A stretch of 64,000 bases of DNA, taken from NCBI GenBank assembly GCA_002344005.1, contig DDTD01000046.1, positions 66,403-130,402 on the forward strand, read 5' to 3'. The position numbers were made by a program, and so were the translations under genes. Source of the DNA: Ignavibacteria bacterium UBA2373 (GTDB lineage Bacteria > Bacteroidota > Ignavibacteria > Kapaibacteriales > UBA961). A model generated the notes under the pieces. The model was not told the DNA's origin. It did not search any database and saw nothing but the letters and a program-made list of their open reading frames with translations. Below, piece after piece: positions 2,662 through 37,971 of the stretch; positions within the stretch are counted from its first letter, which is position 1, and each line of letters begins with the position of its first letter.

Positions 2662-3936
2662 TCATTTCCATTGTTTTAAGGGTAAAAGCAGTCTTTCTAA
2701 GAGTCGTATATTTTCAGTAATTATTTCCACTTTCCCTTCCATATCTTGCTGAAAAGTAAGCGTTTTCCCATACGAAGTGGTCAATCCTTTATCTAAACTT
2801 ATGGTGGCAATATAAGCATTATCTTTTGCCGATAAAGACATAGTGCGTATGGTGCCGGCAACGGCTCCAAATTCCGTATAAGGATAATTATCGAATTTAA
2901 GTATCACAGGACTACCTATATGCACTTTACCTGCCCCATATTGTGGAACATTAACTTTACCTATAATCTCAATATTGGGAGGAATAACAGTAAAGACCTC
3001 ATCACCTTGATTTACTGACTGATTTTTACTCCACACTCGATAAAAAGAAATAGTTCCGTCAATAGGGCTGCGAAGCATATATTTTTTTTCCCAGAGTTCA
3101 ATAGCACTTTGTAAATTTTTATATGTTTCCCGCAAGCGAACTTCTGTAATATGAATTCTTTCTTGTCTTTGTTGTTCGGTTTCTTGTATATTCTTTTGTG
3201 CATCCACAACACGCATAGAATTATTGACAATATTTGCATCTAATGCATCAAGGGCATATTTTTTTTGCAGAAAATTACTTTCCGACAAAGCTAAATCTGC
3301 ATCAGAGATATGACCTTTTTGTCTGAGAACTTTATCATTATCCATTTTTCTTTCAGCAAGTTCCAAATCACGTTTCAACAATTCTTTTTGTTGCTTTAAT
3401 TTTTGCTCAACTGATTTAGCATAGGTAATTTGTTTTTCAATGGAGACAACACTTGCACTATTATATTCTGCGGAAGAATAAAAACGATAATCCGAAACAG
3501 CAAGTAAAAAATCGGAATATGCGGTTTGAACTTCACCCAGAGTAGAATATTCGGGAAAATACATATTTTCTGCAAGAATTGCTTTGGTTACTGATTGAGA
3601 AATAGAAGTTAATTGTTTCTTGATAATTGCAATTTTGATTGGATCGGCAGCGGTCTCAAGCAATGCAATCGGTTGACCTGCTTTGACCAAAGATGTGTCT
3701 TTGACATATAAATCCACAATACGTCCGGAAGCTTGTGCAATAATTTTAGCGGGCGGATCGGCTGATGTTAAACGACATTGAGCAATAACCACATCGGGAT
3801 AATGAATAAACCATGTTGCACCGATAATTATACACATAAAAATAAAAAGTGCAGCAATTCCCCACCGCATTGTCCATTGTGGCATTTGAGTGAGAATATC
3901 CTCAAACTCTTCACTGTGTTGAGTATGACGCGGCAT
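2662..3936 (-). CDS. HlyD-family membrane fusion/periplasmic adaptor protein (peptide exporter accessory)
   Basis: N-terminal TM segment, long coiled-coil middle region and C-terminal beta domain. Translationally coupled to the upstream C39-ABC transporter (3-nt gap). Confidence 0.75.
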   Translation of the reverse strand: MPRHTQHSEEFEDILTQMPQWTMRWGIAALFIFMCIIIGATWFIHYPDVVIAQCRLTSADPPAKIIAQASGRIVDLYVKDTSLVKAGQPIALLETAADPIKIAIIKKQLTSISQSVTKAILAENMYFPEYSTLGEVQTAYSDFLLAVSDYRFYSSAEYNSASVVSIEKQITYAKSVEQKLKQQKELLKRDLELAERKMDNDKVLRQKGHISDADLALSESNFLQKKYALDALDANIVNNSMRVVDAQKNIQETEQQRQERIHITEVRLRETYKNLQSAIELWEKKYMLRSPIDGTISFYRVWSKNQSVNQGDEVFTVIPPNIEIIGKVNVPQYGAGKVHIGSPVILKFDNYPYTEFGAVAGTIRTMSLSAKDNAYIATISLDKGLTTSYGKTLTFQQDMEGKVEIITENIRLLERLLLPLKQWK

Positions 3937-3938
3937 AA

Positions 3939-6128
3939 TTATGCTCCCAGTTCTAATTGATTTTTAACCAAAGAAAAATATGCGCCTCTTTGTGCAAGTA
4001 ATTGCTCATGGTTGCCCTGTTCAACAATTTTTCCATTATGTAAGACGACAATATTATCGGCATTTTTTACAGTACTCAAACGATGCGCTATAATCAATAC
4101 CGTTTTACCTTTGTATATAGTATTTAACTGCTCGACGATTGTTTTTTCATTCAAAGCATCTAAAGCACTTGTTGCTTCATCAAAAAATAAATAGTCGGGA
4201 TTTTTATATACTGCGCGGGCAATCAATAAACGTTGCTGTTGCCCTGTACTTAATCCTAAGCCCTCTTGCCCGATTTTGGTAGAATACCCTAAAGGCAAAC
4301 CTGTGATAAATTCTCGTATATTAGCCACTTTGACAGCATGCTCCAAGCGTTCGCGATCCAATTTTTCTTCACCGGGAGCAATATTGCGTGCTATGGTATC
4401 AGAAAAAATAAAACCGTCTTGCAACACGACACCACAAGCATCGCGCCATGAATGATGGGCTATAGATTGCAAATCAGTATCGCCAATGCTTATCGTTCCC
4501 GCCGTAGGTTCATAAAATTTTAACAATAATTTTAGCAATGTTGATTTACCGCTTCCACTGGTGCCCACAAGTGCAGTAATTTTTCCTTCAGGAATTGAAA
4601 ATGTCAATGAGTCTAATACGGCAGGGCTATGCGGACCTGTATAATGAAATGACAAATTATGTATATAAATTGACTTATCCTGTGGAACAACATTATATGG
4701 TAATAAATCGGGCTGTTCTTCATTCGGAGCTGCATGAATTTCTGCCATACGTTCAAGACTTAATCTGGCATCTTGCGATAAAAGAAAAAAGCCCAATAAT
4801 TGTTCCACTGGGCTATTAAGGACCCCAAGGATATAAGAAACCGACAGCATCATACCTATGGTCATATTCCCGTTCAGAACTTCATGAGCAGCAAGAAAAG
4901 TAATGACAATATTTTTTAACTCATTAATAAAGAGAATACCCGATTGTTGTTTTTGTGCTAAAGCCAATGCCTTTACATTAAGATGAAACATTTTTGCTTG
5001 CAAGCGTTCCCATTCCCATCTTTTTTGCATTTCAATATTATGCAATTTTATTTCTTGCACACCATGTATCAATTGAATCAAAGAATTTTGATTATCACTT
5101 AATTGCCTAAAACGTTTGTGATCTATGTCTGCCCTTTTTTTGAGAAATGCCAATATCCATAGAACCGAGAGCAGAGTTCCTGCAAAAAACACTATAAACA
5201 TTGTAGTGCTGTAAAGGAAAAACATTACACCGAAGACAAGTAAGGTAAAAAGAGAAAAAATAACAGAAATGGAAGATGAAGTGAGCAAGGTTTCAATGCG
5301 TTTATGATCTTGAATACGCTGCAGGATATCTCCTGTTTTCTTCGTTTCAAAAAATGAAATCGGCAAACGCATTATTTTTCTCAAAAAGTCGGCAATCAAC
5401 GAGATATTAATACGCGAACCAATATGCAATAAGATACGGCTACGTAAGAACTCAATGACAACCTTGCTTAAAAACAGGACAAGTTGCGATATCAGCACAA
5501 TAGTAACAAACTCAGTATTTCTTGTATTGATGCCAATATCCACCAAAGATTGTGTCAGCAAGGGGAAAATTATTCCTATCACACTTATGACAATAGCTCC
5601 TATAAGCAATTGTACAATGAATTGTTTGTAGGGTGCAATGTAGGTCGAAAGAAATGAGAATGCACTGCGTGAGTTTGTCACTTCATTTTCATCATCGGCA
5701 CGATGGAAGGAAGGCGTTGGTTCAAGGAGCAACACGATACCTTGTTGTTGTTCCGGCGGCAACCATCCCTTCAAAAATTCTGCTGAAGAATAGCGTATAA
5801 TACCATGTGCAGGATCGGCAACAGTGACTTTATTTTTTTCTACCTTAATGACAATCACAAAGTGTCTTTGTTCCCAAAATACAATGAGAGGAGTTGTTAA
5901 TGTGCGGAGAGTACCAAAATCCGATTTAGCAGCATGGGTGCGAAAGCCAATACTTTCTGCTGCATTGCTCAGCCCTAACAAAGAAACCCCTATGCGCGAG
6001 ATGTGAGTACGTTCACGCAATGTTTGCATGGTAAATGTTTTGCCATGATACTTGGCAATCATGCGTAAGCATGCCGCGCCGCAATCTTCTGCATCATGCT
6101 GTTTATATATTGGAAACCTTGAAAACAT
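3939..6128 (-). CDS. Peptidase C39 domain-containing ABC transporter (bacteriocin/peptide-processing exporter, ATP-binding/permease)
   Basis: The N-terminus has the C39 catalytic cysteine context QHDAEDCGAACLRM. There are six TM helices and an ABC domain with Walker A GTSGSGKST, signature LSTGQQQRLLIARA and Walker B FFDEATSALD. Confidence 0.85.
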   Translation of the reverse strand: MFSRFPIYKQHDAEDCGAACLRMIAKYHGKTFTMQTLRERTHISRIGVSLLGLSNAAESIGFRTHAAKSDFGTLRTLTTPLIVFWEQRHFVIVIKVEKNKVTVADPAHGIIRYSSAEFLKGWLPPEQQQGIVLLLEPTPSFHRADDENEVTNSRSAFSFLSTYIAPYKQFIVQLLIGAIVISVIGIIFPLLTQSLVDIGINTRNTEFVTIVLISQLVLFLSKVVIEFLRSRILLHIGSRINISLIADFLRKIMRLPISFFETKKTGDILQRIQDHKRIETLLTSSSISVIFSLFTLLVFGVMFFLYSTTMFIVFFAGTLLSVLWILAFLKKRADIDHKRFRQLSDNQNSLIQLIHGVQEIKLHNIEMQKRWEWERLQAKMFHLNVKALALAQKQQSGILFINELKNIVITFLAAHEVLNGNMTIGMMLSVSYILGVLNSPVEQLLGFFLLSQDARLSLERMAEIHAAPNEEQPDLLPYNVVPQDKSIYIHNLSFHYTGPHSPAVLDSLTFSIPEGKITALVGTSGSGKSTLLKLLLKFYEPTAGTISIGDTDLQSIAHHSWRDACGVVLQDGFIFSDTIARNIAPGEEKLDRERLEHAVKVANIREFITGLPLGYSTKIGQEGLGLSTGQQQRLLIARAVYKNPDYLFFDEATSALDALNEKTIVEQLNTIYKGKTVLIIAHRLSTVKNADNIVVLHNGKIVEQGNHEQLLAQRGAYFSLVKNQLELGA

Positions 6129-20330: not shown

Positions 20331-20742
20331 TTAACTTCTATATCTCTCCCCTTTTCTTCTATGCTCGTCGGATTAACTTCTATATCAGTCGTCTCATTTG
20401 CTATGGCTTACTTTTTATCTTCTATGCTCGACGGCTCATTTTTTATACTCGTCGGATTAACTTCTATGCTCGACGGCTCACTTGCTATGGCTTGCTTTTT
20501 ATCTTCTATGCCTGTCGGATTAACTTCTATGCTCGTCGGATTAACTTCTATCTCAGTCTGCTCACTTTCTATGGCTGTCTGCTCATCTTCTATGCTCGTC
20601 GGATGACTTGCTATGGCTGTCGGATTAACTTCTATACCTGTCTGCTCAACTTCTATGCTCGACGGCTCATCGTCTATACTCGTCGGATGACTTACTATAT
20701 GCAGAACTTTATCATCTATGCGCAGAACTTGATCAACTATAC
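20331..20742. repeat. Tandem array of ~20 copies of a 21-bp unit (consensus TTCTATGCTCGTCGGATTAAC)
   Basis: The 21-bp periodicity is visible directly. The array is open as heptad-repeat ORFs on both strands (minus: SIEVNPT; plus: FYARRIN). Confidence 0.9.
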
Positions 20743-20945
20743 GTCCAGATGGTCTCATGCCGCGCCCAGATGGTCTTCTGCCGCGTCCAGATGGTCTCTC
20801 GCCGCGTCCAGATGCTCTCTCGCCGCATCCAGATGGTCTTTTGCCACGTCCAGATGGTCTCTCGCCGCATCCAGATGGTCTTCTGCCACGTCCAGATGGT
20901 CTTTTGCTGCGCCCAGATGGTCTCTCGCCGCATCCAGATGGTCAA
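20743..20945. repeat. Tandem array of ~10 copies of a second 21-bp unit (consensus CCAGATGGTCTCTCGCCGCGT)
   Basis: Abuts the first array directly. Open as PRPDGLL (plus) and DHLDAAR (minus) heptad ORFs. Followed by a Lys/Glu-rich ORF tail to 21179. Confidence 0.9.
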
Positions 20946-21180
20946 TTTTCAGGGAAAGTTGCCAACAATCACCCCCCAGAATCCAAAAATCCACCCCCAG
21001 AAGGTAAAAAACGAGGAAAAGAACAGAACAAGCGAACTAAAGATGAAAACGAGCAAGCGAAAGAAGCAGAAAAACGAGGAAAAGAAGCAGCGCAAACACT
21101 CATGGCAAAAGAGCAGCAATACACAGATATTCAGATGCGTAGAATAGAAGGGAAAAAGAGTAGCGGCGAAGTTTTCTGAT

Positions 21181-21505
21181 TAAATCCCGCAGGGATGGAA
21201 TGTTTATAGAAATAAATACATCCACCCCGTCAGACTGCGTCTGACACCCCTCAATGAGGGGAATTTTTGAAACGCAATAGCGGATAAATCCCGCAGGGAT
21301 GGAATGTTAATAGAAAAGGATGTAAAAAAATATAAAATCCCGCAGGGATGAAAGGTTTATAGAAATAAATACATCCACCCCGTCAGACTGCGTCTGACAC
21401 CGAGCAATGAGAACCCACCCCGTCCTTCGGACACCCCTCCGATGGATGGGATGAAATTCAATAGTTCATAAATCCCAAAGGGATTGAACGTTTATAGAAT
21501 TTGCG
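21181..21505. repeat. Cluster of REP/BIME-like palindromic units (GC-rich mini-hairpins with 3-nt loops) in an AT-rich background
   Basis: Three copies of AAATCCCGCAGGGATGGAATGTTTATAGAA. Two copies of ATCCACCCCGTCAGACTGCGTCTGACACC. CCCCTCAATGAGGGG, GTCCTTCGGAC and AATCCCAAAGGGATT are also present. The same modules recur at 23716-23952. Confidence 0.8.
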
Positions 21506-21530
21506 TTTGATGTGATGGGCGAATTCCCGT

Positions 21531-21563
21531 AAACCTATAAGGTTTTCAAAACCTTATAGGTTT
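21531..21563. promoter_or_regulatory. Perfect 16-bp-arm inverted repeat AAACCTATAAGGTTTT-C-AAAACCTTATAGGTTT (candidate operator site or strong hairpin)
   Basis: Both arms are identical in reverse complement with a 1-nt spacer. The repeat lies ~160 bp upstream of the first toxin cassette. Confidence 0.5.
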
Positions 21564-21719
21564 GGATAAGGAAATCCATCTTTATGACCCGCGCTTGGCG
21601 CAATGACGATTCATTGAGTCAATACTCTCGCATCAGCCAAAAAATGAGTATTTTTGGCAAGGCATCAAAAGCATTGAGCAAAGCCACTCAACCATAAGCG
21701 GGCGAAAAATGTTGATGAG

Positions 21720-22076
21720 ATGGCGGAGGGTAGAAGTTATGTTAATTTAGCTAGTGAATCACGAACAGCTCACATAATTGCAAGTGATGCAACAGGTGGT
21801 GGACATGCATGGTTTGGAAGTTGGAAAAGCTTTTCAAATGGAATTACGGGTCAAAAAACAATGTTTCCGATTACTTGGAGTAAAAATAAAATTATGCATG
21901 CTGCTTCGGATGTTTTAGTAAATAACCCAATTGCAAGGCAAACAGGATCAGCCGGAAGTCTTTTTGAAAGAAGTGGAAGACTATCAAGATTCACAACTTT
22001 TGGGGAATATCAAGGAGTTAAAATAAAAGTAGTTTGGGATAATACAGATATAATTACAGCACTTCCTATAAAATGA
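21720..22076 (+). CDS. Orphan polymorphic-toxin C-terminal domain, bacterial EndoU-like RNase (118 aa, no delivery or N-terminal region)
   Basis: GGGHAW...KTMFPITWSKNKIMHAASDVL...GVKIKVVWDNTDIITALP matches the EndoU_bacteria pattern (GGxH, K..FP..Ws..kI, C-terminal ...iTAyP). An in-frame stop lies 45 nt upstream of the ATG, so the gene is a standalone module. AT-rich. Confidence 0.55.
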   Translation: MAEGRSYVNLASESRTAHIIASDATGGGHAWFGSWKSFSNGITGQKTMFPITWSKNKIMHAASDVLVNNPIARQTGSAGSLFERSGRLSRFTTFGEYQGVKIKVVWDNTDIITALPIK

Positions 22077-22360
22077 ATAAAATGAATAGTAAAAAAGAGA
22101 ATATGATAATTCAATTATTAAAAAATTTACTCTCTAATGCTTTAATGCTTGGAGTTAAAGGGGAATGTAAATTAATAGTTGATGAGTATATCGAATTTAA
22201 TGAATTCGGCTTAGCGTTCGAACACATTGTTTATGAGTTACATGAAAATAATATTCGAATCCCCAATGAACTTTATTTCGACTTTAAAAATGTTGCGGAT
22301 TTGATGGAGCTTAATGAGAATGAATATCAGCCTAGGTTATTAGAATTAATTTTGAAATAA
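22073..22360 (+). CDS. Putative cognate immunity protein (95 aa)
   Basis: Start ATG overlaps the toxin stop (ATGA). Small acidic protein, the typical toxin-immunity arrangement. Confidence 0.5.
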   Translation: MNKMNSKKENMIIQLLKNLLSNALMLGVKGECKLIVDEYIEFNEFGLAFEHIVYELHENNIRIPNELYFDFKNVADLMELNENEYQPRLLELILK

Positions 22361-22473
22361 TCTTATGTAGTTGCCGCTAAGACGATTACGAAACTGTTAA
22401 ACCCTGCTATCAAAATAACTGAGAGCGGTTTAGCACATACATTGGATAGGCATACTTTTAATGGTATTCCAAG

Positions 22474-22698
22474 ATGGCTGATAAGAGTAAGTGTTTTGAT
22501 GCTTCTGAGGTTGAAAGCCTAATTCGGCAGGGAACACAAATGCCAATGAAAAGACAGATTAATGGAAACTTCTCTCGTGTTGTAAATGCAGGAAGAAATA
22601 TTGGCATAGACAGAGCAACAGGGAATCTAACATCAATTTACACAATCATTACTAATGGGCAAGGCAATTTAATTACTGCATTACCAGGTATCCCATAA
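22474..22698 (+). CDS. Second, truncated orphan toxin C-terminal fragment (74 aa), related to the C-terminal half of the first module
   Basis: PMKRQINGNF...TSIYTIITNGQGNLITALPGIP parallels PIARQTGSAG...KIKVVWDNTDIITALPIK of module 1. It lacks the GGGH/K-FP catalytic N-half. A stop lies 15 nt upstream of the ATG. Confidence 0.45.
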   Translation: MADKSKCFDASEVESLIRQGTQMPMKRQINGNFSRVVNAGRNIGIDRATGNLTSIYTIITNGQGNLITALPGIP

Positions 22699-22709
22699 TA
22701 AGAACAAAT

Positions 22710-22994
22710 ATGGCGTGGACAATCATTTTAGAAGATGAAAATAAAGAACCAATAATCACACTAAGCAATGAGCTTGAGATTAAGTTCAATGACGATAAGA
22801 GTAACTTTAAACTACTTTGCTTCTTAGACGCTTATGGCGACACCATTTTTAACCGCTTACAAATGGATGATTTAATCAAGGATTTACAAAATTTAAATTT
22901 GATAGAAGCTAATCCTCTTTTAGATGAGATCAAAATACTTGCAGAACGCTGCAAAAATGGAGAACATACATATTTAGCCTTTTATGGTGACTAA
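22710..22994 (+). CDS. Putative immunity protein of the second cassette (94 aa)
   Basis: Begins 11 nt after toxin fragment 2; small acidic protein with no similarity to immunity protein 1, as expected for polymorphic cassettes. Confidence 0.45.
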   Translation: MAWTIILEDENKEPIITLSNELEIKFNDDKSNFKLLCFLDAYGDTIFNRLQMDDLIKDLQNLNLIEANPLLDEIKILAERCKNGEHTYLAFYGD

Positions 22995-23043
22995 AGACAA
23001 AAGCCCAGAGTAGGTGGCTACCTCCTTCATTCTTTGAAAACTA

Positions 23044-23079
23044 TGAGACATTTCGATTAGCCCCATCCCGATTTCCCGA
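23044..23079. repeat. 36-bp direct repeat TTGAAAACTATGAGACATTTCGATTAGCCCCATCCC (copy 1), followed by imperfect palindrome GCCCCATCCCGATTTCCCGACGGCGAGAAAAAAAGAGGGGC
   Basis: 34/36 identical to 23716-23751. Both copies lie 10-50 nt after the stop of a cassette gene. Confidence 0.8.
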
Positions 23080-23165
23080 CGGCGAGAAAAAAAGAGGGGC
23101 AAAGTTTTGAGGAATGGAACATCAACATCAAACAATGATAGATAACTTTAATATAAGGTGTTTTT

Positions 23166-23705
23166 ATGAAATATGAATTTAGTGACATGGGAATTCCTGT
23201 GAAGTTTACGAAACAGCAAGAAAAATTAATGAAAAAATTTATCATATCTTTTGTAGAAGGCGTATCAGAAATTTGCAAAGAAAAAATAAATCCTTTTATT
23301 AAAAAAAGATACCATTACTATGAAGCTCGCGGATTGTATATAGGAGCGAGTCACTACAGTTATAATTGGCAGATGCTTGATTATTGTGATTTTAGAAACG
23401 CTAATTTAGCTAATGAATATGATTATGTTGGTACTGAAGGTCCATGTTTAGCATTTTCATTTTGTATTCAAGACGATAAAGAACGTTTCTCGAAAATTCC
23501 AATAGTTGCGACAGTGTTTCTTTGTAAGGTTGAGATATTGTTAGATTATAAAGATTTAGAATATTCATTTACGGTAGATTTTAGAGATGAACATAAGCTT
23601 GAAGAAGTTTTCGAAAAAGAGTTGCAAAATATTTTTGAATTTATCAGTGATTCTGTTGATAATATAATCTACGATATAAACAATAATTGGAAAATAGAAG
23701 AGTGA
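23166..23705 (+). CDS. Hypothetical cassette protein (179 aa), possible orphan immunity protein
   Basis: AT-rich ORF flanked exactly by the two 36-bp direct repeats; no recognisable catalytic motif. Confidence 0.4.
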   Translation: MKYEFSDMGIPVKFTKQQEKLMKKFIISFVEGVSEICKEKINPFIKKRYHYYEARGLYIGASHYSYNWQMLDYCDFRNANLANEYDYVGTEGPCLAFSFCIQDDKERFSKIPIVATVFLCKVEILLDYKDLEYSFTVDFRDEHKLEEVFEKELQNIFEFISDSVDNIIYDINNNWKIEE

Positions 23706-23715
23706 GAAGTAAAAG

Positions 23716-23952
23716 TTGAAAACTATGAGGCATTTCGGTTAGCCCCATCCCTCAATGAGAACCCACCCCGTCCTGCGGACACCCCTCCGATGGATGGTAT
23801 GAAATTCATTGCGTCACGGAATCCCGAAGGGATTGAACGTTTATAGAATTTGTGAAAAATCATCCACCCCGTCAGACTGCGTCTGCCACCCCTCAATGAG
23901 GGGAATTTTGAAATTCATTGCGTCATGGAATCGCAAAAGGATGGAATGATAA
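23716..23952. repeat. Second REP/BIME-like hairpin cluster (direct-repeat copy 2 plus the same hairpin modules as 21181-21505)
   Basis: Contains GAGAACCCACCCCGTCCTGCGGACACCCCTCCGATGGATGG, AATCCCGAAGGGATTGAACGTTTATAGAATTTG, ATCCACCCCGTCAGACTGCGTCTGCCACCCCTCAATGAGGGG and GGAATCGCAAAAGGATGGAATG. All match units in the upstream cluster. Confidence 0.8.
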
Positions 23953-23975
23953 TAGAAAAAACAATCCGATAAGTC

Positions 23976-31473: not shown

Positions 31474-34400
31474 TTATCGCTGTGATTGAAAAATTCTATT
31501 AAATGCACTGGTAGTATAATTTACCGTTGTTTGTGATTTTCGTGCATCGGCAGCATATTTAAACGATCGAGTAAATTGTTGACGACTCTCTTGTTCTTGC
31601 TGCGATTGACCTTGGCGATTATGCGAAGAATATTGTGAATTATGGGACATTTCTTCCTCTTTTTTTCGCACAGTCACTTCCACGCTATCAAGTTGCATGC
31701 CTTGTTTACCAAATTGATCTTTTAATTGAGGAAGCTGTGACTCAATTATCTGTTTCGTTTGCTGTGAATCAACTTGTATTTGTAATTGTGTATCAGAATT
31801 TAAAGTGGAATATCGCACAATGACTGTACCTAACTCTTCAGGTTGCAATACCATACGTACTGTTCCATTTCCTTGTGTTTTTGAGGAAATATATTCATGA
31901 GCCTTATCCGCAAAATGCTGTACCGGTAATAATTCCATTATTTCCATAGATGCAACCTTTTTTATAGTAGGTATGCCGACTTTTTGGACTGGCTGAATAT
32001 GAACATTGTGAGGAATAATGATAGAATCTTGAGAAGGGAAATTACTATTTTCAGTCAAGACAAAATTTTGAGAACTATCTGCTACTCCTAAAGATTGATT
32101 TGAGATTGGTGATAATGTCGTTTGTATTTCATTTTCTACATCAATATTATCACTTTTTGACTTAATACTTGAGTTTTGCTGCAATAGATTGCTTTGATTA
32201 TTAATATTATTCGTTATCTCCCCTCTTGGTACTACTCGCTCAGAAGTAGAGGTAATGAACATATTATTAAAAGTATTGTTTTTTTCTACATTCTGATTCG
32301 CAACTGCATTTTTTAACGAAGAACGATAGTGTGATAATTCTTTTTTGAGTAAACTATTATCTTGGTTTGTTGAATTTTGTTGAGTTAGATTTTCGGACTT
32401 TTTAATTATACCATCATTAAAAACGACTGTTTTTTCATATTCAACAAAAGACAAACCTTTCTTTACTTCAGATTTTTTTTCTACCTCACCGGATATTTGC
32501 TTAGAAACAAAACTTCTTTGTATTTTTTCCGAACCATCGTTTGTTTCCAACGAATTCAAAACGTTCATTTTAACTTCATTGGGAATAGTCTCGACTGATT
32601 TTTCAAGGTGGATCTTTTTTGTATTTCGAGAATCAACTTGAGTGTTCTGTATTATAGCGTCAGATGGAGAAGTAGCACTATCATTATAGCGAATCTTAAA
32701 GACAATATTTTTAACCGGAACACCGACTGACGACGCCTTTTCAATAATGGAATGAAGTGCCATTACCGTATTCGGAATAACTTGATGAGAAGTTTGTATA
32801 TCAGAAGGTGGAGTTACAACAATTGCTGAATTATCATGGGTTTTGTTCTTTAAGACATAGAGTGCACCATCGCTGGTTTGTAATGGCTCATGAACAGTAC
32901 GATCAAAAGCCGAAGTATTAAGTATTTTCACAGCTTTAGAATCAGTATCATCATTGATTGTTAATTCTTCATCATTCTCAATAACTTCCTGTTCATCTAA
33001 GTTCTCCGGAACAATTGATTCATAGGTATTCTTTAGTGTATGAACTAATATTGTATCTGTCGGTTGTATAATTGATTTTGATTTGTCATCATTTTGTTTA
33101 ATAGTATGTTGATTGGTTTTCGATGCAATACTTACATTGTCATCAATTCTACTATCCGTTCTTTCTGTAAAAGGAATATTTGACAAAGTGTTAAGTTGTA
33201 TATTCTCCTTGGTTTTTTTACTGAGATTATGTACACCTTTATTTTTCAAAGATTCCTGTTTAGATAAAGATACTATTTGTGGACTATTGTCATTTTTCAC
33301 CATTACATTGTCATCAACAATACCAGCATCACCATTAAATGTATCATTTTTTGAAACTTGATAAACATTGTTATCTAATTGAGTTGATTTTTTTATCTCA
33401 GTAACAACATTCTCTTTCGAGGACAATGCAACAGTATTAGTTTCTTGACTTTTACCTATAGTAACTCGATCATAAGTAAGCGACTCCGAAGATGTCACGG
33501 TAGCATTTAACTTGTTGTCATTTATAACAGCATTGTCTTCAGCTTCCGTAAGAATCGCATTATTATGAGTATTTGTTGTATTATGAGTAATAGTATTTTT
33601 CGATTTTTGATTAAGTTCTGTCAATAAAGTACTATTACTTTTATCACTGTACAGTAATCCGGCATCAGTTTCTTGTACTTCGTCAACGACAGGTTTAGGC
33701 GGAACCTTATATATTACCTCTGATTTGAAAACTTTATCGTGTTTGACAGTATCTAAGTTATTATCTGAAAATGTATTCTTTTTCTGATTCTGATGTACTT
33801 TCGGTGTATTTCCTACAGCATTCGATTCTCCCTTAGATGCACTACTTTCAACTGAATTAAGATTATTGATAGTTTTTAATAAAATTGCTTCTTCTTCTGG
33901 AGAATATTCAACAGACGGAATATCACGCTTTTTAAATTTCATATTGTTGTCATCTGAATCAAAAACACCATAATCAGATGTATTTTTCACAGTCGAATCA
34001 TCGTTTGAGATAATGTCAGAAATTAATTTTATATCCTGCTTGGAAGTATTTCGAGTACCATTATCAATTGATTCATGAATTATTTGCTCAGTAGATGTAT
34101 TATTTACAACACTATTATAGACCGAGTCTTTTTTAGTCTTATTTACAACAATATTATTGACATTGTTTAAGCCAATATCTTTTAGGCTAATGCTATAAGA
34201 ATCATTATTTTCTAAAGCAGATATCTGCTCAGAATAAACCATATGATTATTTGACTTTTTTTTGTCTGATAAAACATTTAATTCATTTACAGTGCTATTT
34301 TCTTTATAATTTAAGGTATCTGATGAATGTACTTTTTGTTGTCCGTCTATATCATAGTCTTTTAATCTATTACGGGACAGCCTGTCAACAGTATATCCTT

Positions 34401-37400
34401 GCACAGTCTGATTTTTATTCTCTTTTGTATGAAGATCTGAAATATTACTTTCATGCGGTGATCTATACATGATATTATCACTCGAATCAACAGATATTTC
34501 TTCTTGAGAATTGTCTAATATAAGATTTACACGATGTTCTGAACTGTTTTTCTCACCACCGTCTGCTGTCTGACGTGCACCTACTTTATCCGATATAACT
34601 GCGTTTGTAGCAGATTTCACTTTTGCAAATGATAATCTTTCTAATGGTTTTGCACTTTTTTCTTGTATTCCTGATGTTGCTTTGGATTTACTATTACCTT
34701 TCAACAACTCAATTTCTGAACGAACTGTAACAGATTTAGCGGAAAAATCTAATTTCGCCGATGATTCCTCCGAAGAATTATCTATGACAATACTGTGTTC
34801 AGTAAGATTTTTCTTATCACCGTCTGTCTGATGTACACCCAATTTATCAGATGTATCGTTTTCTAATTTTGCAAATAATGATTTCTCTAATGGTTTTGTA
34901 CTTTGTTCTTGTATTCCTGCTACTACTTTGGATTTACTATTACCTTCCAATGACTCAATTTCTGAACGAACAATAACAGATTTAGCGGAAAAATCTAATT
35001 TCGCCGATGATTCCTCCGAAGAATTACCTGTTACAAGAGCAACATTACTTTCTGAAAGATTTTTCTCACCACCATCTGTCTGATGTACACTCAATTTATC
35101 AAATGTATCGTTTTCTGATTTTGTAAATGATGATTTCTCTAATGGTTTTGTACTTTGTTCTTGTATTCGTGCTACTGCTTTGGATTTACTATTACCTTCC
35201 ATTGACTCAATTTCTGAACGAACAATAACAGATTTAGCGGAAAAATCTAATTTCGCCGATAATTCTTCCGAAGAATTATCTGTTACAAGAGCAACATTAT
35301 GTTCTGAAAGATTTTTCTCACCACCGTCTGCTTGATTTACTCCTAAATTATTAGTAAAAACTTCGATTATTTCTTTATCGTCAATAGATTTTGTACTTGA
35401 TGTTTTATGAGTAAACGTATTTGCATACGTTTTAGAGTTATCTCTAGTACTTTCAATAGGAATAGAATTCTCAGTATTGCTTCCGTTTGTGATTTCTTTT
35501 ATTGATTCAGAAAAGAAATGTCCGGATGTTTTTTGAATTATCTTTTCAATACTTCTTTCTGATTCTTCGACATCAATAGTACGATTTGATTGTTTTGATT
35601 TTATTGAAGAAAATTTATCATAATCGCTTTCATTATATTCCGTACCTGTATGTATTTCTACGTTTTCACCTGTTCTTAATACATCTTGAAAAGAAATTTT
35701 GGAGTTTTTTGCATTACCTTGATCTATTGTCTGATCAATAATAGAGTCTTTAGCATATTGCCTAACAGTTTGCTGTTGTTCTAGCGAAATGCTCTTTGCA
35801 ACAAGATTTTTCTCATTATGTTCATTTTGTGATGTTTCACTATATGTTATTTTTTGATTGTTTGCTTGTTGAGATGTATCTGGCATTGACATGACTTTAG
35901 ATTCAGGTCTTTTTTCCTCATTTTGATTATATGATAGATGATTTTCAATCTGAGGATGGTTTATATCCGCGTCAATATCATCATTATAAATATTGTTTTG
36001 CGATGATTTTATTGTTTGAATGATTGAGGTCTTAGTACGGATAGTGCTGTTTTCAATATTTACTGATTTATCATCTTCCTTCAATGTATTCACATACATT
36101 CCTATAGCAGGTGCTTTTTCAGATGATAGTATTTTTGATGTCGTATTTTCAAATTGTGCCACTGTGTTTACTTCATTATTAGTCTTCTTCACTCCGGCAT
36201 TCTTAATTTTTGCTTCTGCATCACTATTATATGCGATGATATTTTCTCTATCGTTCTGACTTTTCAATTCAGACTTATCATGAATAAGCTGTTCATTGAC
36301 TATGTCTGTTTTTTCCAATGTATTTCTCGAATTGCTTGAATTGTTGTATTTATTTGCATTCGATATCGGTTGAAATTTTTCTGTTAATTGTGCATGCTTT
36401 TCATTATTTCTATGAAACTCAAGACTATTTTCTTCAGGAAATAATTTTTCAATGTATTCTTCAATAGCAGCATTCTGCAAACTCGGATCTACCGTTGTTA
36501 TTGATATTGATTTCCTTGTATTTTTATTATCTATATTATCTGTATTGGAATTTTCATCTCCAACAGGCTGATTAATTTTGTTTTGTTGTTCATCACCTAT
36601 ATTATCTAAATTGGAATTTTCATTTCCAACAAGTTGGTTAATCTTGTTTTGTGATATATATGTGTCTTTAGCTCGACTTTTATTTACTACATTTTCTTGC
36701 AATGAATCACTCCCATGATAACTCATTGCTTTATCTTTATACGGGAATGTATTATTCTTTACGGCTTTGTCTGATTCACTATTATTTACATTTTGTTGAG
36801 ACTGCAGGACTCCACCTTTGATAGTATCATTATAAAACCTCATTGGTATATTCTGTTCTTCATTTGTACCATTTTGAAGCGGTAATGATGTATTTGATGC
36901 TTTATTTGACCCTTGAGGTAGATTTAAGTTCTTATTAGCAGTTATACTTTCATTTGTCGAAGTTATTGTATCAGGATTTGATATAGACTCAGCATGATTA
37001 TTTAGATTTACGACTTTAGTATGCTGTGGAAGTACAGTTTTCTCTTGTAAACCATTATTAACCGGTTTATGATATACTGATCCAAATACTTGTTCAAAGC
37101 TTACTTCCGTATTTTGATTGTTGTACTTTACAGTCACTTGATCTTTACTAAAGGAACTCTCCAACGGTTGTGATTTTTGTTGCATGGGTATCCATAAATT
37201 TTGGATTACCATATCAATAATGTGCGGTATTTCCTCCTGTGATGTTGTCGAAATATCAACACGTACTTGAATATCCTCATTATGTGAGGAAAGTAAATTG
37301 ATTTGAACTTTACTTTTATTGTGCACCTTCATTGAATCACTAAAATCTCGTATCATGGATTCAATTTCTGAAGATTTTTCCTTATTTTTCGATTGTGTAT

Positions 37401-37971
37401 TTGATAGAACAATATCTGTGGCACTATCATTTTTTTGTCTGTAAGAATCCGTCTTTTTACTATCAATGTTTATAGCATCAACTAATCCACCTACATTCGA
37501 GTTTTCTTTTGTTTTCTGAATCTCTGTATCGGTAGTGACTTGCTTTGCAAGAGTGGGATTATTGGCATCGAACAGTTGGGATTGTTTTTTCACTTTTTGA
37601 TTATCCAGACCTTGAAACAACGATAGCTCTTCTCCCTCCGAATCGTTTGAGGATTGGGATTTCACCACTATATCATATACATATTCCCATTGGTTATCTA
37701 TATCTGTCGTTGGTTGAAATATTCTAGCTGTATTTGATTGTACAACTTGCTCATTTTGTGTATAAGACGAATTTTCTTTTAATAAAGTAACAGGTACTGT
37801 GATATTGTTACGTGTGCTTTTAGCATCAATCGTTGATTGAAGCAGATTTGAAAAGGCAAATATTGGTGGAGAATAATCACCATCTGGCGATTTAGACACA
37901 GAGGCATCCGTAAGATTTCCGGATGAGTTTGTGAGAAAATGTATGTCTATTTTCATTGTTGCGTCCTGCAA
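31474..37971 (-). CDS. fliK: Giant FliK-like hook-length control protein (2165 aa): FliK C-terminal domain preceded by ~1900 aa of Asn/Ser/Thr/Lys-rich low-complexity sequence with internal tandem repeats
   Basis: The C-terminal ~150 aa (GNGTVRMVLQPEELGTVIVRYS...LQIQVDSQQTKQIIESQLPQLKDQFGKQGMQLDSVEVTV, then a Gln-rich tail) match the FliK/Flg_hook domain. The gene sits between fliJ/MotE-like and flgD, as fliK does in fla operons. Uninterrupted ORF. Confidence 0.65.
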   Translation of the reverse strand: MQDATMKIDIHFLTNSSGNLTDASVSKSPDGDYSPPIFAFSNLLQSTIDAKSTRNNITVPVTLLKENSSYTQNEQVVQSNTARIFQPTTDIDNQWEYVYDIVVKSQSSNDSEGEELSLFQGLDNQKVKKQSQLFDANNPTLAKQVTTDTEIQKTKENSNVGGLVDAINIDSKKTDSYRQKNDSATDIVLSNTQSKNKEKSSEIESMIRDFSDSMKVHNKSKVQINLLSSHNEDIQVRVDISTTSQEEIPHIIDMVIQNLWIPMQQKSQPLESSFSKDQVTVKYNNQNTEVSFEQVFGSVYHKPVNNGLQEKTVLPQHTKVVNLNNHAESISNPDTITSTNESITANKNLNLPQGSNKASNTSLPLQNGTNEEQNIPMRFYNDTIKGGVLQSQQNVNNSESDKAVKNNTFPYKDKAMSYHGSDSLQENVVNKSRAKDTYISQNKINQLVGNENSNLDNIGDEQQNKINQPVGDENSNTDNIDNKNTRKSISITTVDPSLQNAAIEEYIEKLFPEENSLEFHRNNEKHAQLTEKFQPISNANKYNNSSNSRNTLEKTDIVNEQLIHDKSELKSQNDRENIIAYNSDAEAKIKNAGVKKTNNEVNTVAQFENTTSKILSSEKAPAIGMYVNTLKEDDKSVNIENSTIRTKTSIIQTIKSSQNNIYNDDIDADINHPQIENHLSYNQNEEKRPESKVMSMPDTSQQANNQKITYSETSQNEHNEKNLVAKSISLEQQQTVRQYAKDSIIDQTIDQGNAKNSKISFQDVLRTGENVEIHTGTEYNESDYDKFSSIKSKQSNRTIDVEESERSIEKIIQKTSGHFFSESIKEITNGSNTENSIPIESTRDNSKTYANTFTHKTSSTKSIDDKEIIEVFTNNLGVNQADGGEKNLSEHNVALVTDNSSEELSAKLDFSAKSVIVRSEIESMEGNSKSKAVARIQEQSTKPLEKSSFTKSENDTFDKLSVHQTDGGEKNLSESNVALVTGNSSEESSAKLDFSAKSVIVRSEIESLEGNSKSKVVAGIQEQSTKPLEKSLFAKLENDTSDKLGVHQTDGDKKNLTEHSIVIDNSSEESSAKLDFSAKSVTVRSEIELLKGNSKSKATSGIQEKSAKPLERLSFAKVKSATNAVISDKVGARQTADGGEKNSSEHRVNLILDNSQEEISVDSSDNIMYRSPHESNISDLHTKENKNQTVQGYTVDRLSRNRLKDYDIDGQQKVHSSDTLNYKENSTVNELNVLSDKKKSNNHMVYSEQISALENNDSYSISLKDIGLNNVNNIVVNKTKKDSVYNSVVNNTSTEQIIHESIDNGTRNTSKQDIKLISDIISNDDSTVKNTSDYGVFDSDDNNMKFKKRDIPSVEYSPEEEAILLKTINNLNSVESSASKGESNAVGNTPKVHQNQKKNTFSDNNLDTVKHDKVFKSEVIYKVPPKPVVDEVQETDAGLLYSDKSNSTLLTELNQKSKNTITHNTTNTHNNAILTEAEDNAVINDNKLNATVTSSESLTYDRVTIGKSQETNTVALSSKENVVTEIKKSTQLDNNVYQVSKNDTFNGDAGIVDDNVMVKNDNSPQIVSLSKQESLKNKGVHNLSKKTKENIQLNTLSNIPFTERTDSRIDDNVSIASKTNQHTIKQNDDKSKSIIQPTDTILVHTLKNTYESIVPENLDEQEVIENDEELTINDDTDSKAVKILNTSAFDRTVHEPLQTSDGALYVLKNKTHDNSAIVVTPPSDIQTSHQVIPNTVMALHSIIEKASSVGVPVKNIVFKIRYNDSATSPSDAIIQNTQVDSRNTKKIHLEKSVETIPNEVKMNVLNSLETNDGSEKIQRSFVSKQISGEVEKKSEVKKGLSFVEYEKTVVFNDGIIKKSENLTQQNSTNQDNSLLKKELSHYRSSLKNAVANQNVEKNNTFNNMFITSTSERVVPRGEITNNINNQSNLLQQNSSIKSKSDNIDVENEIQTTLSPISNQSLGVADSSQNFVLTENSNFPSQDSIIIPHNVHIQPVQKVGIPTIKKVASMEIMELLPVQHFADKAHEYISSKTQGNGTVRMVLQPEELGTVIVRYSTLNSDTQLQIQVDSQQTKQIIESQLPQLKDQFGKQGMQLDSVEVTVRKKEEEMSHNSQYSSHNRQGQSQQEQESRQQFTRSFKYAADARKSQTTVNYTTSAFNRIFQSQR

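Follow-up and report, generated by a model that had tools for sequence, protein, structure and literature searches.

A strain-variable islet of displaced polymorphic-toxin and immunity cassettes, probably kept mainly for immunity, in a member of the Ignavibacteria

In polymorphic-toxin loci, stand-alone C-terminal (CT) toxin cassettes occur, some with a start codon and some lacking one, and an immunity gene follows each of them; among these, MafB-CT cassettes that possess a start codon are regarded as potentially translated (PMC4287609). Arrays of orphan immunity genes protect against effectors (PMC12247911). We analysed a 64,000-nucleotide (nt) stretch of DNA from Ignavibacteria bacterium UBA2373 (contig DDTD01000046.1, positions 66,403 to 130,402), hereafter called the window, in which an original prediction made from the sequence alone had placed an array of orphan toxin/immunity cassettes at 21720-22994. 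The cassettes lie in a strain-variable, replaceable islet of ~2.8 kb (~21172-23959) between an M20 peptidase gene and hrcA. With a probability of roughly 60%, we read this islet as a set of displaced polymorphic-toxin CT/immunity cassettes that are exchanged at shared flanks and kept mainly for immunity. The locus is of a fairly ordinary warfare/immunity type, and what sets it apart is only that a common non-coding leader, instead of a large toxin gene, precedes the part that is swapped.

The islet holds five open reading frames (ORFs), all in the same orientation: module 1 (M1), its partner I1, a 74-aa ORF that forms part of module 2, I2 and ORF5. All four ORFs named by the original prediction were present at the coordinates given, but its end at 22994 left out ORF5 (23166-23705) and the right-hand repeats of the same variable segment. 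M1 is basic (isoelectric point, pI, 9.9), whereas I1 (pI 4.85), I2 (pI 4.34) and ORF5 (pI 4.9) are all acidic. The GC content of the five ORFs is 0.27-0.38, compared with 0.40 for the window; about 10% of 2.1-kb segments of the window match or undercut the islet (minimum 0.306), and at least one further low-GC segment is present. An Rfam scan of the islet gave no relevant match, only a sub-threshold chance match, and sigma-70 promoter sites were not more frequent than in shuffled sequences. PDB sequence searches with M1, I1, I2, ORF5 and a toxin from L041 returned chance matches only. (Here and below, L and three digits denote the genomic loci compared, and P and four digits homologous proteins from a representative library.) PADLOC gave no match for M1, I1, I2 or ORF5, and no known toxin-antitoxin (TA) or defence family was recognised among them.

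M1 (21720-22076, + strand) is an intact, stand-alone toxin domain. As originally described, it is 118 aa long and begins with a Met, and an in-frame TGA begins 45 nt upstream of the ATG. Its proposed likeness to EndoU was borne out by a profile search, in which M1 matched PF14436 (EndoU_bacteria) with 40.2 bits (E 5.4e-10; Pfam gathering threshold 25.3 bits), residues 44-117 aligning to profile positions 66-128 of 129, so that only the C-terminal half is covered. When compared with 112 representative domains, H18, H29 and K46-T47 of M1 fall in columns that are 100%, 92% and 94% conserved. M1 also keeps F49, P50, W53, S63 and T113 of the near-invariant columns and is atypical at three positions (G22S, T83E and P88L). 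In CdiA-CT(STECO31), the catalytic residues are H187, H204 and K261-T262 (PMC9086364), and H18, H29 and K46-T47 are the predicted counterparts of this His-His-Lys(-Thr) site. Judged by these alignments, M1 is a complete EndoU_bacteria domain and a predicted ribonuclease (RNase). An AlphaFold2 model of M1, built on an alignment of four sequences, had a predicted local distance difference test (pLDDT) score of 45 and was unusable, being too poor for an assessment of catalytic geometry.

A profile search through 1.84 billion representatives yielded 611 relatives of M1. Among the best 150, the domain ends five or fewer residues from the C-terminus in 91%, and the median N-terminal extension is ~144 aa. 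At 16 genome loci, nearly all from Bacteroidota, the EndoU domain terminates ORFs of 1265-2278 aa where the contigs allow, and DPxGM/L motifs stand before the toxin tip. The domain of the large Bacteroidota toxins begins at YVNLAS, exactly as M1 does. In L001, it is the last member, frameshifted, of a classical Rhs orphan array. A 93% identical copy of M1 occurs in a third context (L005), where homology begins at 21659; the two copies are separated by eight nonsynonymous codon changes and one synonymous change. M1 itself has no signal peptide, leader or adaptor domain. Among its relatives, P0004, P0096 and P0137 are small EndoU-family proteins of 141-149 aa with hydrophobic N-termini directly before the domain that, judged by eye, resemble Sec signals, which suggests that freely secreted short EndoU toxins may exist.

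I1 (22073-22360, + strand) encodes an acidic protein of 95 aa. Its predicted translational coupling to M1 is evident from the overlap of the two genes, as M1 ends at 22076 and I1 begins at 22073, sharing the sequence ATGA. The protein matched the NCBIfam model NF033691 (MafI immunity) with 31.8 bits against a cutoff of 31, which is marginal, and an identical protein from an Ignavibacteria metagenome-assembled genome (MAG), MBK7986249.1, was named 'MafI family immunity protein' by PGAP. The first ORF downstream of the EndoU toxin was an I1 homologue in all of the 14 loci examined in other genomes (14/14), and I1 is the predicted cognate immunity gene of M1.

Module 2 (22364-22698, + strand) turned out differently from what had been expected, namely the C-terminal half of a domain related to that of M1. 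Its N-terminal half (…ITESGLAHTLDRHTFNGIPRW) lies directly upstream of the 74-aa ORF (22474-22698), at 22367-22477 and in the frame of I1. Past the I1 stop codon, this frame runs on as …VVAAKTITKLLNPAIKITESGLAHTLDRHTFNGIPRW, and a one-base shift then leads into the 74-aa ORF. The domain is therefore split by a 1-nt deletion at ~22473-22477 (TGG[G]CT) and not truncated. We conclude that one G was lost from TGGGCT because the intact relatives read …KWANKSKF… at the junction. Once reconstituted, the 110 aa are covered to 97-98% by these relatives (P0154, P0155 and P0157), at 64-78% identity. The frameshift is the same in all independent assemblies, and module 2 has no start codon.

Module 2 also belongs to another RNase family. 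A truncated EndoU domain was ruled out by the profile-profile probability to EndoU of 11%, by the intact relatives and by a fold search. No Pfam model matched the module 2 family. The AlphaFold model of P0154 had a pLDDT of ~85-90 over the domain, and the closest folds to the family were those of YxiD-CT (9V8I) and MafB2-CT (8HHJ), the latter an experimentally shown RNase (PMC9970974). Given this modelled similarity to solved members, module 2 is predicted to be a complete but inactivated RNase A-like/BECR toxin domain.

I2 (22710-22994, + strand), in contrast to the inactivated toxin that precedes it, is an intact gene, whose 94-aa product had no family match in Pfam or NCBIfam. In L034 and L035, the intact module 2 homologue P0155 is followed at once by a gene homologous to I2 (E 6e-50), beside an Rhs-CT fragment, and this linkage marks I2 as the predicted cognate immunity gene of module 2. 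The original view of the small downstream ORFs as immunity genes is thus upheld by the MafI match of I1 and by toxin-immunity linkages that are kept elsewhere for both I1 and I2. Module 2 and I2 would represent a new RNase A-like toxin family without a Pfam model and its immunity family. In Bacteroidota, the counterparts of both islet toxin domains form the C-terminal ends of Rhs/YD-type toxins or belong to Rhs orphan arrays. Classical arrays of this kind were seen in other genomes in L034 (2903-4339) and L001 (102-8740), where the fragments each begin at the end of the Rhs core (YYGARYYD…DPxGM) and carry a differing C-terminal tip and an immunity gene. The 411-aa fragment of L034 closes with …TAFPLIP, a terminal motif of the kind that modules 1 and 2 also have.

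A delivery gene was sought throughout the window. As had been claimed, the cassettes lack a delivery domain, and the 64 kb contain neither a delivery domain nor an Rhs remnant. A full-length toxin is missing too: the large ORFs are unrelated, and tblastn with Rhs-CT fragments and full-length toxins matched the EndoU domain only. The search for a pre-toxin coding remnant before the islet toxins (DPxGL, PxxxxDPxGL, VENN, DWVKN or DUF1020) found none, and tblastn detected no Rhs-core remnant in the window. The longest candidate for a full-length toxin, an ORF of 2165 aa, is FliK. This homologue (31474-37971, - strand) is unusually long, only its C-terminal Flg_hook domain was recognised, and flagellar genes (FlgD, FlgE, FliF and FliI) are clustered around it. 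No recombinase was found among the genes within ±10 kb (precomputed Pfam annotation) or the large ORFs scanned, small ORFs farther off not having been scanned. No integrase was seen and the repeats do not follow each gene, although no scan with an attC model was made. About 16 kb from the islet, at 2662-6128 (- strand), a Peptidase_C39/ABC transporter protein of the bacteriocin-exporter type (3939-6128) is encoded together with an HlyD-family partner (2662-3936). The islet toxins lack a double-glycine leader for such an exporter, and a hypothetical fused leader would end in …VAEG, with Glu at -2.

Comparison with related genomes showed how the islet varies. The window is 100% identical to several contigs from bioreactor and activated-sludge metagenomes and 99% identical to the MAG GCA_016713455.1 ('Ignavibacteria bacterium'); sister MAGs bear the name Candidatus Kapaibacterium. 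The source is an Ignavibacteria/Kapabacteria species from activated sludge. The islet copy in GCA_016713455.1 has broken ORFs, though this assembly, which departs by ~0.8% and has indels, could contain errors. Strains with 99.8% identical hrcA DNA contain a different insert of 3.5 kb between the M20 peptidase gene and hrcA, encoding a type IIG restriction-modification (R-M)-like methyltransferase and a PDC-S45/LmuA-like protein. In L028 (7141-11487; also in L031 and L033), the insert comprises a Trypsin_2/PDC-S45/LmuA-like protein, the type IIG R-M-like methyltransferase, called as two split or overlapping ORFs (527 and 236 aa), and an unknown protein with 300 aa, and is a candidate defence islet.

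The same five-gene unit was found at a second site, downstream of dcuC in L025 (the dcuC-META hotspot). The coding part of the two copies is 100% identical, and all 34 differences between them fall in the flanking repeats. The flank of L025 is 99% identical to L037, which derives from a contig of 4,002,048 nt, and an identical HrcA protein is encoded on a contig of equal size. Judged from these identities, one genome of the species most probably contains both hotspots.

Other strains at the dcuC hotspot have ~550 nt in common with the window (21179-21731), extending through a short ORF, MS(I/N)FGKASK(A/V)LSKATQ…, to the toxin start, RTG-GCG-GAG-G. The shared leader of ~0.5 kb thus reaches the first four codons (M/V-A-E-G/V), after which different toxin/immunity pairs follow. 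L037, L042 and L043 continue with a glycine-zipper-like peptide (63 aa), a multi-pass membrane protein (165 aa) and a tandem pair of ORF5 paralogues; L041 continues with a 115-aa protein (…LTNAGRAVTKH…) and an ATGA-coupled acidic ORF of 89 aa. Neither toxin of these leader-linked pairs (L037 6300-8540; L041 758-1371) scored above threshold in Pfam. The right-hand block (element C, ORF5 and elements B and A; see below) is 93-96% identical in L037. At the level of the locus, the original prediction that no homology blocks bound the cassettes does not stand, because the leader with its four codons and the right-hand ORF5/repeat block are common to other strains. A metagenome scan for the leader found three loci only, all at the dcuC hotspot, and no long gene with this leader.

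In the window, the conserved non-coding leader (21571-21719, + strand) is ~80% identical to the leaders of L037, L041, L042 and L043. It contains the short upstream ORF (21644-21697, MSIFGKASKALSKATQP*) and an A-run right before the toxin start. We rejected the idea that a frameshift or slippage at the A-run joins this ORF to the toxin: the frame offset is not conserved (mod 3 = 1, 0 and 2, with A-runs of 5, 3 and 6), and stop codons intervene. Upstream of the leader, at 21531-21563, lies a perfect palindrome with 16-bp arms (AAACCTATAAGGTTTT C AAAACCTTATAGGTTT; inverted repeat I2, a repeat label unrelated to the gene I2), with a fold z of -5.35; only one of its arms is present in L037 and L041.

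The left border of the islet is a cluster of hairpins resembling repetitive extragenic palindromes (REP; 21179-21503, + strand; direct-repeat families D3-D6; fold z -4.6 and -4.2). It is composed of element A (21181-21267), with a partial copy (21285-21316) and a second copy (21335-21401), and element B (21405-21503). The right border (23716-23959, + strand), defined by repeat search, consists of element C copy 2 (23716-23751), B' (23753-23852) and A' (23861-23959), and homology to the strains with alternative content resumes at 23960. Elements A and B and the palindrome fold better than shuffled sequence (z -4.2 to -5.4). Elements A and B also border the islet at the dcuC hotspot (L025, L037). 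The repeats do not qualify as a genome-wide REP family, as within the 64 kb they are confined to the islet borders. The predicted bounding by hairpins accordingly holds for the islet as a whole, with repeats at 21179-21503 and 23753-23959, and for the ORF5 unit, but not for each cassette: the spacer between I1 and module 2 is a coding remnant of module 2 and contains no repeat element.

ORF5 (23166-23705, + strand; 179 aa) forms a separate, repeat-bounded cassette. A 36-nt first copy of element C (23034-23069, + strand; repeat family D8) lies upstream of it and is 94% identical to the second copy at 23716-23751. In L037, three copies of element C bracket the two tandem ORF5 paralogues. The ORF5 protein had no match in Pfam, NCBIfam, PADLOC or PDB; its homologues in Ignavibacteria/Kapabacteria MAGs are 88-100% identical, with a tandem duplicate at the dcuC hotspot, and it may be a candidate third orphan immunity gene. 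Beyond the left border, the stretch that separates the islet from the M20 peptidase gene holds two arrays of 21-nt tandem repeats side by side (20331-20985; ~30 units in total, with two distinct unit sequences), which create long ORFs on both strands that look spurious. These arrays vary between strains in length and sequence (76-86% identity with indels in L028 and L031).

How the cassettes are exchanged can be explained by ordinary homologous recombination at conserved flanks, because left and right blocks are common around different middles. Recombination would take place in the ~0.5-kb leader on the left and in the ORF5/hairpin-repeat block or the flanking genes on the right. The different mobilisation mechanism envisaged in the original prediction is not required by the data, as homologous recombination at the flanks suffices, but could also be at work. 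The toxin in first position would probably be expressed from the conserved start codon, and since M1 is coupled to an immunity gene, the islet may be self-stabilising. The immunity genes may shield the cell from EndoU-type and RNase A-type effectors of neighbouring Bacteroidota and other bacteria. The earlier idea of an immunity-reservoir island agrees well with what we found: because a live I2 adjoins a dead module 2, the islet matches the logic of orphan-immunity islands (PMC12247911), and an immunity-centred role appears most likely.

Several observations weigh against this interpretation. The assignment of I1 depends on a score that barely exceeds the NCBIfam cutoff. The GC contrast is modest, with 60 of 619 equal-sized segments as low or lower, and low GC was discarded as a strong sign of transfer. 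The deviation of M1 from the consensus at three strongly conserved columns, together with its 8:1 excess of nonsynonymous changes, could reflect decay or diversification. Neither a full-length toxin nor a secretion system or recombinase was seen in the window, so that no recombination target and no source of the cassettes emerged. Finally, three different first-position toxins are intact and use one conserved start codon, which suggests that the toxins themselves may be used, and not only the immunity genes.

The last point would fit a locus that acts as an active weapon, in which the leader drives small stand-alone toxins that travel as cargo of an unlinked machine (a contractile-injection or type VI secretion system-like tube, vesicles or lysis) and the downstream cassettes are spare ammunition. 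The shared start codon and leader, the catalytic pattern kept by M1, the small EndoU-family proteins with apparent Sec signal peptides, which may be short secreted toxins, and the precedent of potentially translated MafB-CT cassettes (PMC4287609) are all consistent with such a role. We nevertheless consider it unlikely. M1 has neither a signal peptide nor a leader or adaptor domain, and the short upstream ORF could not be fused to the toxin in a conserved way. No secretion machinery for such cargo was seen in the 64 kb, as the C39 exporter (3939-6128) needs the double-glycine leader that is absent here, and module 2 has been left to decay. With similarly little confidence, we envisage a minimal polymorphic-toxin system whose constant part is the ~0.5-kb non-coding leader and four codons. 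Behind it, two repeat-flanked hotspots would trade stand-alone toxins of unrelated fold, among them the EndoU RNase and the glycine-zipper peptide, together with the matching immunity genes, and no dedicated recombinase would be involved. With no trafficking domain fused to them, the toxins would either be carried by an unlinked machine or function as modules for self-stabilisation or defence.

An intracellular TA or abortive-infection module in a defence hotspot, with the EndoU RNase held in check by I1 and freed upon phage infection or loss of the islet, seems quite improbable. R-M-like and PDC-S45/LmuA-like defence genes do occupy the exact same site in sister strains, M1 and I1 are translationally coupled, and BECR-fold RNases are common to polymorphic toxins and TA systems (PMC9086364). 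However, no islet protein matched PADLOC, the toxin comes first in the gene order, no DNA-binding antitoxin domain is present, and the immunity family of I1 is always linked to delivered Rhs-type toxins. A dead toxin next to a live immunity gene, as in module 2 and I2, better fits interbacterial immunity. That the small ORFs are neutral debris, decaying and functionless remains of an old horizontal transfer, is very improbable: module 2 is a pseudogene, M1 shows a nonsynonymous excess and atypical residues, and the GCA_016713455.1 copy (in a possibly error-prone assembly) is broken, but all five co-oriented ORFs recur intact and unchanged across many independent assemblies and at both sites in the chromosome, immunity genes are intact beside a dead toxin, toxin-immunity linkage is conserved across phyla, and ORF5 is duplicated and 88-100% conserved.

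Read as a store of displaced cassettes kept mainly for immunity, the islet brings the Ignavibacteria/Kapabacteria lineage of wastewater communities into the known range of orphan toxin/immunity islets. It shows, as a clean natural example, one set of cassettes at two hotspots of the chromosome and a single leader that precedes three different toxin/immunity pairs. Should the first-position toxins be expressed and used, polymorphic toxin exchange would be able to run on a non-coding constant region, and one would have to ask by what route a toxin that lacks a delivery domain arrives at its target. Should they not be used, the locus would be a compact example of immunity genes outlasting a decayed toxin, which would help in reading the many small 'hypothetical' gene arrays in metagenome-assembled genomes.

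Among described systems, the MafB(MGI-1 NEM8013) and CdiA-CT(STECO31) toxins (PDB 5HKQ; PMC4287609, PMC9086364) are the closest to M1, sharing PF14436, the His-His-Lys(-Thr) pattern and a MafI-type immunity partner. Unlike these, M1 stands alone with its 118 aa and is not the end of a secreted or surface protein; within its own EndoU subfamily, it is set apart by the substitutions G22S, T83E and P88L. The module 2 family is only 16-18% identical in sequence to MafB2-CT (8HHJ), YxiD-CT (9V8I) and the CdiA-CT of Y. kristensenii (5E3E) (PMC9970974). It differs from them in lacking a Pfam family, and the copy in the window carries a frameshift and lacks a start codon.

At the level of the whole locus, the islet resembles the orphan cassettes of Rhs/YD, CdiA and MafB-CT/MafI systems (PMC4287609, PMC4436062) in that its toxin domains are homologous to the tips of large toxins, a small acidic cognate immunity gene follows each toxin, the array is co-oriented and its content varies between strains. 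The MafB-CT cassettes of maf islands are of two types, with and without a start codon, which modules 1 and 2 match (PMC4287609): the first toxin is intact and has a start, the second is dead and start-less, and an immunity gene follows each. In contrast to these systems, the islet has no full-length toxin gene upstream (within 64 kb) and keeps no pre-toxin coding homology, its shared block being the non-coding leader and four codons, and its host belongs to the Ignavibacteria/Kapabacteria lineage. With the AID-1 and rAID systems of Bacteroidales (PMC12247911 and work cited there), it has in common the encoding of orphan immunity proteins, an apparent mobility from genome to genome and a proposed protection from the effectors of neighbours, and perhaps also the co-oriented array of short low-GC genes with conserved motifs between them. 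Unlike rAID, it has no tyrosine recombinase in view (±10 kb annotations and large ORFs scanned), and unlike both, it retains an intact first-position toxin gene, has only three immunity-type genes and carries its repeats at the borders and around ORF5, not between all genes.

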